Made by a program: the position numbers and the translations under genes | Notes under the pieces: generated by a model | Seen by the model: only the letters and a program-made list of their open reading frames with translations | The model's database searches: none | What the model was told of the DNA's origin: nothing | From: Candidatus Hydrothermales bacterium | GTDB taxonomy: Bacteria; Hydrothermota; Hydrothermia; Hydrothermales; JAJRUZ01 | NCBI GenBank assembly: GCA_039630575.1 | Contig: JBCNUW010000022.1 | Location: forward strand, 1 to 31,527 | Length of the DNA stretch: 31,527 nucleotides | Reading direction: 5' to 3' | In this document: positions 2,511 through 28,109 of the stretch, in pieces | Position numbering within the stretch: position 1 is the first letter of the stretch | Layout of the letters: every line of letters begins with the position of its first letter

Positions 2511-3172
2511 AATGGTAAACCAAAACAAAGAATCATATCTACATTAGGAAGGTTGGATAAGTTAAAAGAAATAAACGATTTAAAAACTTAGGAGATAGTT
2601 TTTTAAGGTCTAAAGAATTATGGCAGATAAAAAAATAATTAAAGAATTAAAAAACCTATTAGAGGTAAAACATATTATGGGTATAACTTTTAAAATGGCT
2701 AAAAAAGAAAGGATATCTTTCGCAGAGATAAAGAAAAATTTAGAAGAATTATACTAAAAAACTCATTTCAAGGTGTTGCTGGTAGGATATTTCAAACTCT
2801 TAGGATAAAGGGTCGACCAACAAATTATTCGTCCTCTAAAATTAAAGCAAAGTTTATATAGTACAATGCCAAAATTTTATTTTCAAAAATTATTTTAAAT
2901 TATTATTTTTAAAAGAAGTTTAAAAATGGGTTTAAAGAGGTTATTGGAGGTATAGAGTGCTATTCAGAAAAATAAAAGATTTTATGAAGATAAGACTATA
3001 TTTGTTGCAGTTCTTAGGTATTTAGTTGAGAAAGCAATTATGAAATTTTGAAAAAGAGCTATAGAAAGAAAAATATTTGAGTTTTTTGATGTAAAAATAA
3101 GGAGATATCTTTTAGTGGAGACAAGATAAAAGTAAAATTGATAATATTCAACGATTTTTAAATTAAATTGGG
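2511..3172 (+). pseudogene. Heavily deleted and frameshifted IS1634-family transposase relic with degenerate right end
   Basis: Colinear fragments: NGKPKQRIISTLGRLDKL from 2511 (family N-terminal GKP.QR.I..LGR.D motif); IKELKNLLEVKHIMG (~2640-2680); LLEV*SA/FRKIKDFMKIR (~2941-2996, catalytic VE.AFR.IK...IRP region with a stop and a frameshift); IFVAVLRYLVEKAI (~2998-3039). These are followed by sequence matching the MITE right end. Confidence 0.75.
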
Positions 3173-3187
3173 TTAGAAAAGAGTTAA

Positions 3188-3331
3188 CCAATTTCCCATT
3201 TTCACCCTAAAAATTTTGGGGACCTTTATAATTTTAAAAATCATCAGGTTCCAATAATTTTAAATTTTTAAAAGAAAAGATAAAAATATAATTTGTATTC
3301 AAAGATTTTTAATTTAAGGGGCAAAAATGGG
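3188..3331 (+). mobile_element. Second, more degenerate and internally shortened copy of the MITE-like element
   Basis: CCATTTTCACCCTAAAAATTTTGGGG...CAATAATTTT...GATAAAAA...TATTCAAAGATTTTTAA...GGCAAAAATGGG aligns colinearly with 364-544; flanked by TTAA (3184-3187) and TTAA (3332-3335). Confidence 0.7.
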
Positions 3332-6557: not shown

Positions 6558-7592
6558 ATGGGTATTATTTTATCTTTAATAATAATTTCTGGAACATTTT
6601 CAATAGTTGCAATGGATCCCGAGACAGAAGAATTCGGTGTCGGGGTTGCTTCAAAAGTTTTAGATGTTGGTTATATCGTTCCTTGGTTAGAAGCAGATGC
6701 AGGTGCAGTAGCAACACAGGCTCTTGCTAACCCATATTTAGGCAAATGGGCTATTGAGCTTCTAAAAGAGGGTAAAAGCGCTGAAGAAGTTCTTAAAATA
6801 ATTCTCGAAAGAGATACATCACCGGAGGATAGACAGGTAGGAATTGTTGATAAAAATGGAAATTCAGTATCTTTTACTGGAAAAAATACAATCTCATGGG
6901 CAGGACATAAAAATGATAAATATGTGGCAGTCCAGGGAAATATACTTGTAGGTCCAGAAGTTATTGATACGATGTTTAAAGTTTTCAAAAATACTGAAGG
7001 GCTACCTCTTGCAGAAAGGCTCCTTTTAGCTCTCGAAGCAGGAGAGGCAGTAGGAGGAGATAAAAGGGGAAAACAATCAGCAGCTCTTTATGTTGTAAGG
7101 AAAAGAGGAGGATATCAAGGAGCAAACGATAAACTTGTTGAATTAAAGGTTATTGATAATCCCGAACCTTTAAAAGAATTAAGAAGAGAGTATGAATTAT
7201 GGCAATATGCATTCCTTGCAACAAGCTATTTAAGGCTCGGGAAGGAAGAAAAAGATAAAGAGGAAATATTTTTTAAAAGAGCTTATTCACTTTTAAAAAA
7301 AGCTTTAGAAATTGACTTAAAAAATGCAGATGTTTATAATAATTTGGCATGGGAATTTGCTTTGATGAAAAAATATCCAAAAGAGACAATTGAAGCAGCA
7401 AAAAGAGCACATGAGTTGTCCCCAGAAGATCCAAATATAATGGATACACTTGCAGAAGCCTATTATGCAGCAGGAATGTATAAAGAGGCTATTTTTTGGG
7501 AGAAAAAAGCTCTTGAAAAAGAACCTAATAATGAATTCTTTAAAAAACAACTTGAAAAATTTAAAAGGGCATTAAAAAAATCTAAAAAGTAA
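6558..7592 (+). CDS. DUF1028-family putative Ntn-hydrolase with C-terminal TPR region, probably exported
   Basis: TFSIVAMDPET...GVGVAS, GAVATQA, RQVGIVD, QGNIL, AGEAVGGDKRGKQSAAL; TPR-like YNNLAW...DTLAEAYY; AGGAGG RBS at 6548-6553 and TATAAT at 6527-6532. Confidence 0.85.
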   Translation: MGIILSLIIISGTFSIVAMDPETEEFGVGVASKVLDVGYIVPWLEADAGAVATQALANPYLGKWAIELLKEGKSAEEVLKIILERDTSPEDRQVGIVDKNGNSVSFTGKNTISWAGHKNDKYVAVQGNILVGPEVIDTMFKVFKNTEGLPLAERLLLALEAGEAVGGDKRGKQSAALYVVRKRGGYQGANDKLVELKVIDNPEPLKELRREYELWQYAFLATSYLRLGKEEKDKEEIFFKRAYSLLKKALEIDLKNADVYNNLAWEFALMKKYPKETIEAAKRAHELSPEDPNIMDTLAEAYYAAGMYKEAIFWEKKALEKEPNNEFFKKQLEKFKRALKKSKK

Positions 7593-7607
7593 AACAATAA
7601 ATTTAAA

Positions 7608-7646
7608 CCCCTCCTGCCCCAGCAGCCCTTTTTCCCACTACTTTTT
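7608..7646 (-). ncRNA. Candidate sigma54-dependent small RNA with a G-quadruplex-type tract; 3' end unknown
   Basis: Minus strand GGGAAAAAGGGCTGCTGGGGCAGGAGGGG (7636-7608) starts about 10 nt after the predicted +1 of the adjacent -24/-12 promoter. No credible ORF follows. Confidence 0.35.
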
Positions 7647-7656
7647 ACTTAAAATA

Positions 7657-7672
7657 AGCAAAAAATATTCCA
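7657..7672 (-). promoter_or_regulatory. Sigma54-type -24/-12 promoter with no downstream gene
   Basis: Minus strand TGGAATATTTTTTGCT, i.e. GG-N10-GC; 12/16 identical to the element upstream of hdrC. Confidence 0.6.
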
Positions 7673-7714
7673 CTCAAAAATTTTTAGAAAATCAAAGGAT
7701 TTTAAAATGAAAAA

Positions 7715-7745
7715 GTGTATCAAAGATACAATCATTATGAGACAT
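7715..7745. promoter_or_regulatory. Candidate enhancer-binding-protein site (upstream activator sequence)
   Basis: Perfect palindrome TGTATC-AAA-GATACA (7716-7730) followed by TGAGACAT (7738-7745); a similar block lies at 28070-28099. Confidence 0.5.
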
Positions 7746-7760
7746 CTAATAATAAAAAAA

Positions 7761-8762
7761 TCAACATATCCTAGGTAAAGGATCAGCATAAGGCATATCC
7801 AAAATTCTCGTAACTTTTAATGATGTTAAAAGCTTCAAACTTCCCCCACTTTTTGAAACTTCTCCTATTACCTTACTTTCTCTCCCAAACTCACATCCTC
7901 TTAAAACTTCTAAGGCTCTTTCAGCATCACTTGCCTTAACAAAAAAAATCATTTTACCCTCATTTGCCATAAGCAAAGGATCAATACCAAGAATCTCTGA
8001 TAAACCCCTCACCTCATCTGTTATAGGGAGATTATCCTCAAATAAAACAATGTCATAACCAGACTCCTTCGCAATTTCATTTAAAACACCCTGAACCCCT
8101 CCTCTTGTTGGATCCCTCATAAAATGAACTTCAATCTTATTCTCATAAAGAGCTTTCCACAATTCTAAAAGAGAAGCTGTGTCACTTTTTAAATTTCCCT
8201 CTACCTTAATATTTTCCCTTGCTACTAAAATAGAAAAACCATGTAACCCTATTGGACCATTTATTATTAACTTGTCATTCTCCTTTATTCTATGATAACC
8301 CAAATCTATATCCTCTGGAATAAAACCAATTCCTGAGGTATTGATAAAAATTCCGTCACCTTTTCCTCTTTCAACAACTTTTGTATCTCCTGTTACAACT
8401 TTTACATTTGCTCTCTCAGAAGCTTCCTTTACAGAATCCAAGATTTTTTCTAAATCTTCAAAGGAAAAACCCTCCTCAATTATAAGTGAAAGAGAGATAA
8501 ATTCTGGAAATGCCCCTACAGCAATAAGATCGTTTACAGTTCCATTTACCGCTAATTCACCAATATTTCCACCAGGAAAAAAAATTGGTGAAACAACATA
8601 AGAATCTGTTGTAAAAGCTATTCTTTTGTTTTTATTTTTTAATATAGCGGAGTCAAGGAGTTTGTTAAGCTCTTCATTTTTAAACCTTCCTTTAATTTCC
8701 TTTTCTATGAATTCTCTCATTAAAATTCCACCGGCTCCGTGTGCAAGTTCAACTTTCTTCAT
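7761..8762 (-). CDS. hypE: Hydrogenase maturation carbamoyl dehydratase HypE
   Basis: LAHGAGG, FTTDSYVV, GTVNDL, TGDTKVV, MRDPTRGG, ANEGK and C-terminal LPRIC. Confidence 0.97.
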   Translation of the reverse strand: MKKVELAHGAGGILMREFIEKEIKGRFKNEELNKLLDSAILKNKNKRIAFTTDSYVVSPIFFPGGNIGELAVNGTVNDLIAVGAFPEFISLSLIIEEGFSFEDLEKILDSVKEASERANVKVVTGDTKVVERGKGDGIFINTSGIGFIPEDIDLGYHRIKENDKLIINGPIGLHGFSILVARENIKVEGNLKSDTASLLELWKALYENKIEVHFMRDPTRGGVQGVLNEIAKESGYDIVLFEDNLPITDEVRGLSEILGIDPLLMANEGKMIFFVKASDAERALEVLRGCEFGRESKVIGEVSKSGGSLKLLTSLKVTRILDMPYADPLPRIC

Positions 8763-27985: not shown

Positions 27986-28033
27986 CTTTTTATGAGTTTT
28001 TAACCGGATTTGAACCTTAATTTAACATTTAAT

Positions 28034-28049
28034 AGCAAATTTTGTTCCA
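28034..28049 (-). promoter_or_regulatory. Sigma54-type -24/-12 promoter of the hdr-mvh operon
   Basis: Minus strand TGGAACAAAATTTGCT (GG-N10-GC), about 50 nt upstream of the hdrC ATG and in the correct orientation. Confidence 0.7.
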
Positions 28050-28069
28050 TATACTTTTTCTATAATTTC

Positions 28070-28109
28070 GTGTATTTTTAAAACATCTATTTGAGACATA
28101 GAGAGACAC
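28070..28109. promoter_or_regulatory. Candidate enhancer-binding-protein site upstream of the hdrC promoter
   Basis: GTGTATTTTTAAAACA (TGT-N9-ACA) followed by two GAGACA half-sites (28093-28098, 28103-28108); similar to 7715-7745. Confidence 0.45.

Follow-up and report, generated by a model that had tools for sequence, protein, structure and literature searches.

On the minus strand of the window, by which we mean the whole 31,527-nucleotide stretch of DNA analysed here, a sigma54-type promoter stands behind hypE and would drive a small RNA that we call RNA B. We read RNA B as a decoy, and not as a G-quadruplex, because the 15-mer that is constant in all its copies is exactly complementary to the core of another predicted, unannotated RNA, RNA A. 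Our proposal is that RNA B is a sigma54-induced sponge of RNA A, which would neutralise RNA A when the hydrogenase operon is on; we give this reading an even chance of being right. The initial annotation of this DNA had suggested a small RNA at the locus and that part stands, but the partner RNA on contig C23 was absent from it. An Rfam search, which it had also proposed, matched no family: there was nothing above noise for the element region, no match for RNA B, nothing but tRNA at the RNA A loci and nothing above noise at six further loci. What emerges are two RNA families without an Rfam match, a predicted class-wide anti-Shine-Dalgarno (SD) RNA and its family-specific, sigma54-driven complement.

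The promoter behind hypE and the hydrogenase operon

The element lies in the gap between two convergent genes, which end at 7592 and 7761. The features of the locus, and the related site at the head of the operon, are as follows.

7761..8762 (-): hypE (TIGR02124), with which the hdr/mvh/fhs/hyp run ends
7738..7744 (-): upstream activator half-site TGTCTCA; TGTCYCA is kept in 7/7 copies of the element, and the box is also present at the hydrogenase operon promoter
7715..7730 (-): activator dyad (palindrome TGTATC-AAA-GATACA, 7716-7730), which in relatives aligns as TGTCTCA-T-TGAGACAC
7688..7707 (-): AT-rich spacer, defined by sequence only and not conserved (15-22/42 identical)
7672-7657 (-): TGGAATATTTTTTGCT, sigma54 -24/-12 promoter, with GG at 7671-7670 and GC at 7659-7658
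6558..7592 (+): DUF1028-TPR gene (PF06267), the convergent neighbour, not conserved beside the element
28034..28109 (-): region before hdrC, the operon head, with a sigma54 promoter at 28034-28049 and TGTCTC boxes at 28090-28109

The positions first given for the promoter, the palindrome, the G-tract and the convergent DUF1028/hypE gap were all confirmed. The suggestion that the promoter is of the RpoN type and has an activator site upstream is likewise borne out: rpoN, whose presence the initial annotation had proposed to check, was found in the genome (30% G+C, 94.7% complete) together with four receiver-type activators, and both the -24/-12 element and the TGTCYCA boxes are conserved. Taken with these genes and upstream boxes, assignment of the element as a sigma54-dependent promoter is well supported, the predicted start on the minus strand lying at about 7646. 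The form TGGAA-N6-TTGC is present in all seven copies of the element. On its own a GG-N10-GC pattern is trivial, with 3558 sites genome-wide. The longer TGG-N8-TTGC is found at 236 sites, 23 of them outside long ORFs, and the intergenic form TGG[AC]A-N6-TTGC at nine, only two of which, the element and the site at 28049, have TGTCYCA boxes upstream. Within the spacer is what we take to be an IHF-like site with one mismatch; the genome has two HU/IHF genes. Strong sigma54-type sites without TGTCYCA boxes were also seen at G000:C1:118368 (-), before a pilin-like gene, and at C8:6839 (-), after a tRNA-Leu (G000 being the window genome).

The operon has the order hdrCBA-mvhDGA-fhs-hyp, with hdrC first. 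Its promoter and boxes at hdrC are conserved in four related genomes (G001-G004), and the palindrome of the element has a letter-for-letter copy at the hdrC promoter of G002. When the box-plus-promoter pattern was searched for, only the RNA B element and hdrC were marked in G001, G003 and G004, only the RNA B element in G005, and hdrC plus one unrelated-looking site in G002, with controls at 0. Since the element and the hdrC promoter share the promoter type and the TGTCYCA boxes, it seems likely, as had been suggested from the outset, that the element is co-regulated with the hdr/mvh/hyp operon. The link to the hydrogenase is not universal, because no such promoter was found in G005 within 36 kb around hypE.

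RNA B and RNA A across genomes

BLAST searches with the whole gap against 41 genomes gave mainly AT-rich noise. The combination of promoter plus 15-mer was found in 5/272 phylum genomes, all in the family of the window genome (control 0), and in 2/23 metagenome hits, the other 21 looking like chance. Seven copies were compared, the window copy and six relatives. Six of the seven lie behind hypE; in G005 the element stands by itself, flanked by one divergent and one convergent gene. In each of the six copies for which there are data the next gene is convergent, and three kinds of gene occur in this place. The features of the two RNAs are given below.

7592..7646 (-): predicted RNA B, a shortened copy of about 55 nt with an uncertain 3' end, placed from the promoter and the six relatives
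7608..7622 (-): invariant 15-mer, 15/15 identical in 6/6 relatives, exact complement of the RNA A core at G000:C23:130330-130344
7608..7636 (-): G3x4 quadruplex pattern (G-tract), in the window genome only
7603..7638 (-): GTG frame of 11 codons that lacks a ribosome site, in the same frame as the micro-ORFs of the relatives
G000:C23:130392-130304 and L113:1805-1893 (-): predicted RNA A, about 89 nt on C23, unannotated

In the six relatives RNA B is predicted to be 73-75 nt long, with both promoter and terminator. A weak 5' hairpin over AGGAGG is followed by an ATG, an A-run, a 10-pair hairpin and a U-run, with the 15-mer forming the 5' arm and the AGGAGGGG loop of this terminator-like hairpin at the end of the RNA. 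The hairpin is 100% paired in the six relatives (slid controls 36-67% vs 96%). Five of the ten pairs vary, each on one side only and none on both, and a shuffle control is uninformative because of this one-sided variation. Across the seven pairs of the core, substitutions are confined to four columns of the 3' arm, the 5' arm being constant, and are always between C and U or between A and G. On the G-rich strand these substitutions give wobble pairs and on the opposite strand mismatches; the hairpin folds at -14.3 to -15.8 kcal/mol on the former against -8.2 to -10.8 on the latter (four relatives). This wobble pattern on the G-rich strand agrees with the direction of the promoter. The AGGAGGGG loop is predicted to be unpaired in the relatives (0.99-1.0) and less so in the window copy (0.55-0.79). 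Outside family f1 the model R2, built from the six intact copies of RNA B, matched at only 22-26 bit, where the four genomes used for training, out of the 64 searched, scored 80-97. No B-like second copy was found in family f2, though RNA A is present in four of its five genomes.

The only other genomic copy of the 15-mer is at C23:130330-130344, where the opposite strand is the core of RNA A. On this contig RNA A comprises a sigma70-like promoter, the C-rich CCCCAUACCCCCUCCU and a terminator, and a tRNA-Lys follows. By our own count the RNA A 15-mer is exact in 28/41 genomes and present in 32/41 if one mismatch is allowed. A species-wide scan returned 57 hits, of which 20 look like chance and 37 have the RNA A terminator, in one case truncated where the contig stops. 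WOR-3 or one of its synonyms (Hydrothermota, Hydrothermia) is the label of 28 of the 37, and nine are unlabelled. It is by these labels that the window genome, from an uncultured bacterium of a hot-habitat type, is assigned to WOR-3. Thirty-four distinct copies were collected, and a model made from 26 of them matches 29/151 phylum genomes, a good many of which had gone into its training, and weakly matches four genomes outside the class; it misses families f3 (0/7) and f9 (0/5). Across the 26 aligned copies 14 positions in a row are invariant, and the terminator has one compensatory pair, in four sequences. RNA A is either stand-alone, with a sigma70-like promoter, or found just behind a small gene, in its 3' UTR, in several families, and some genomes have two or three copies. 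We take this host gene to be ferredoxin-like from its cysteine pattern; it was not found in the window genome with one query.

The RNA A seed is predicted to be unpaired at 0.32-0.81. It complements the SD and, a few bases on, the AUG, which suggests that it represses at ribosome sites and that RNA A would be a lineage-wide anti-SD small RNA. As predicted targets, operon start regions were not favoured (ranks 65-1348 of 1648), and the strength of the top candidate, rplB, was not conserved. Regarding a phage origin of the 15-mer, 0/82 viral loci carrying it resemble RNA A or RNA B. A tRNA remnant or att site was also considered and rejected, as there is no tRNA in the window and the second genomic copy of the 15-mer sits in RNA A, not in a tRNA. 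An RNA of similar build, a C-rich seed plus terminator with a different sequence, was noticed in a family outside the class (L238, G098:C14:30096-30156).

The proposed pairing and its alternatives

RNA B and the hdr/mvh/hyp operon have their promoter type and activator boxes in common, and one two-component activator would presumably switch both on. In the relatives the hairpin loop of RNA B is predicted to display AGGAGGGG, a mimic of the SD, which would seed on CCCCUCCU of RNA A. Pairing would then run via the wobble-weakened 5' arm of RNA B into the base of the RNA A terminator stem, so that strand invasion over 15-16 pairs would open the protected 3' end of RNA A. It would seem likely that RNA A would in this way lose activity or stability, and that mRNAs blocked at their ribosome sites would be released.

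The complementarity has two parts, the loop of RNA B matching the exposed seed of RNA A and the 5' arm matching the base of its terminator. Of all perfect complements to RNA A in the genome the 15-mer is the longest; the chance expectation is 0.0005 for this specific 15-mer and 0.66 for any 15-mer complement along the whole of RNA A. A frozen 5' arm facing a drifting, wobble-weakened 3' arm is most simply accounted for by a second partner, and RNA A is the only perfect one. The predicted gain on cofolding the two RNAs is -11.7 to -18.0 kcal/mol (five genomes); among 200 shuffles, 30-72 did as well in four genomes and 4 in G005. RNA B was outside the top 25 of the 374 sites rescored in the window genome, which had been chosen from 16908 G-rich windows. 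No covariation was seen between the two RNAs, and in G005 the last base of RNA A is changed with its RNA B unchanged. The base of the RNA A stem is also invariant in families without RNA B, which indicates a constraint of its own. RNase III was not found in the genome.

The window copy keeps the boxes, the promoter and the 15-mer and is without the 3' arm and about 19 nt that hold the SD and ATG. Judged by its sequence it appears to be a stripped-down or decaying copy of RNA B, and whether it makes a working RNA is close to evenly balanced. One explanation is that the family is real and the window copy is a dying relic, in which promoter and 15-mer persist and no working RNA is made. We think this unlikely. 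In its favour, the 3' arm, ribosome site and ATG are lost, no terminator was called for this copy and model R2 misses it even with the filters off; in G002, which is the nearest relative and shares the gene order, there is a trace that is further decayed in the boxes, the -12 element and the core. On the other hand, the core is intact (15/15), as are both promoter elements, and the flanks are mostly less than 55% identical (11-14/31-34, 15-22/42 and 11-24/37-45 against the six relatives, about 27-59%). That the core has stayed intact between such diverged flanks points to continued selection, and the window copy, which has no hairpin, shows the largest predicted gain on binding RNA A (-18.0).

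Rather unlikely is a second explanation, in which the loop of RNA B serves a different partner, the 30S anti-SD or a protein, or the hairpin is a two-way terminator, with the match to RNA A stemming from an inverted duplication or from common SD mimicry. AGGAGG would complement any anti-SD, and the A-run before the hairpin and the U-run after it would suit a two-way terminator; the unremarkable cofolding energy and the lack of A:B covariation also fit. It leaves unexplained, however, why the 7 nt of the 5' arm do not change although the 3' arm does, as well as why the match extends beyond the SD, and neither CsrA nor Hfq was found in the 94.7% complete genome.

RNA B could also be a tiny mRNA for a peptide of 16-33 residues and simply a target of RNA A. 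The relatives do have micro-ORFs of 16-33 codons, with AGGAGG and ATG in 6/6 intact copies, and the frame survives a 3-nt deletion. We nevertheless regard this as quite improbable, for the stop position and the tail vary, the early codon changes are mostly replacements with no silent change in the core codons, and the start site is lost in the window genome.

The initial annotation had placed weight on the G-tract, and that the RNA works through a three-tier G-quadruplex fold is now very improbable. The G3x4 pattern occurs five times in the genome against 0-3 times in eight Markov simulations, so that it is rare and only modestly above chance. It is present in 0/6 relatives and, when folded with ViennaRNA with quadruplex folding on, is not the predicted fold of the window copy at 37 or 70 C. 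The same program does predict a two-tier quadruplex in the core of 6/6 relatives at 37 C, with every relative folding as the hairpin at 70 C, and the window copy might have gained the three-tier pattern in place of its lost hairpin. The comparison of RNA B copies thus corrects the quadruplex reading of 7593..7760. With the relatives aligned downstream of hypE, a conserved promoter with no gene following it was seen and a conserved quadruplex tract was not. Antisense action on DUF1028, which had also been suggested, is not supported, as the convergent neighbour differs in 5/6 copies with data.

That the promoter and ribosome site were stranded when their gene was lost by rearrangement is largely refuted and scarcely credible: the relatives do have an SD and an ATG after the promoter, though without a long ORF, but one and the same hairpin is the end point of all seven copies, whose convergent neighbours are of three kinds, conservation stopping there and at the U-run, and no sense gene lies behind in 6/6 copies with data, a finding that upholds the earlier suggestion of a small RNA without a gene behind its promoter.

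Known sponge RNAs and other features of the window

CrcZ and CsrB/RsmZ are RNAs that sequester proteins; CrcZ is driven by sigma54, and the CsrB-type RNAs have GGA in their loops. RNA B differs from them in having one conserved loop instead of many repeats, in a genome where Hfq and CsrA were not found.

We consider RNA B as a sponge to be closer to RosA of Bacillus subtilis, a sponge of RoxS and FsrA that provides the precedent for a G-rich sponge (PMC8216469). On our reading both are stand-alone RNAs with a G-rich region complementary to the C-rich region of an sRNA (in the case of RosA a metabolic one), both have an SD-like site with a small ORF, need no Hfq and have expression tied to a metabolic regulator. 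RosA is 229 nt long and is transcribed in Bacilli from a sigmaA promoter under the control of CcpA (PMC8216469), whereas RNA B has about 70 nt, a sigma54 promoter with enhancer, and one perfect match of 15-16 nt that runs into the terminator stem of its partner; it belongs to another phylum and is predicted from sequence. Owing to these differences in size, sigma factor, regulator and phylum we do not describe RNA B as a member of the RosA family. RsaI of Staphylococcus aureus, as summarised in the discussion of PMC8216469, binds the C-rich RsaE, RsaG and RsaD through G-rich regions; by that summary it is in addition under CcpA control and possesses a C-rich region meant for mRNAs, which RNA B lacks. 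RNA A, for its part, resembles RoxS/RsaE, FsrA and CsfG in having a C-rich, single-stranded seed complementary to ribosome-binding sites, and differs in being a seed plus terminator of 55-90 nt, often in the 3' UTR of the ferredoxin-like gene, and without an Rfam match.

Nothing specific on the motifs, or on a sponge that is sigma54-driven or from WOR-3, came up in the literature searches, most subscription papers being outside their scope, and a small-RNA study in the phylum was not found. Should RNA A and RNA B indeed pair, the kind of G-rich sponge that has been shown to act on C-rich sRNAs in Firmicutes would have arisen again in a distant lineage, here wired to hydrogen and disulfide metabolism and with a predicted terminator-invasion step. 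A bolder extension, which as a whole we hold to be fairly improbable, is that, without Hfq, CsrA or RNase III, the activator of the Hdr/Mvh hydrogenase switches on a decoy by which the terminator of an anti-SD RNA found throughout the class is unzipped. Translation would thereby be shifted between SD-led genes and about 40 genes, hdrC included, which are mostly SD-less and carry a T-loop-like signal, GGUUCRAAUCC, about 20 nt before the start.

The 11-mer GGTTCRAATCC, which resembles the T-loop of tRNA, was seen at 28006-28016 (-) of the window and has 44 copies in the genome outside tRNA and tmRNA genes. Thirty-eight of these lie 17-39 nt before the start of an ORF (25 at 18-22 nt), with an SD core in the spacer in 9/38, and four control motifs gave 0 copies. 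The motif is a candidate SD-independent initiation or leader signal; a literature search on a signal of this type found no paper.

Some other features were noticed in passing. Another of the five G3x4 occurrences, at G000:C78 near 5779 (-), resembles a cobalamin riboswitch core. ARAGORN found 46 tRNAs in the 94.7% complete assembly, with tRNA-Asp not among them. Related AT-rich, MITE-like elements with terminal inverted repeats occupy 360-548 and about 3100-3320 of the window; the repeats at 360-390/518-548 are 31 nt long and 81% complementary, and a motif inside the elements resembles 7677-7714.
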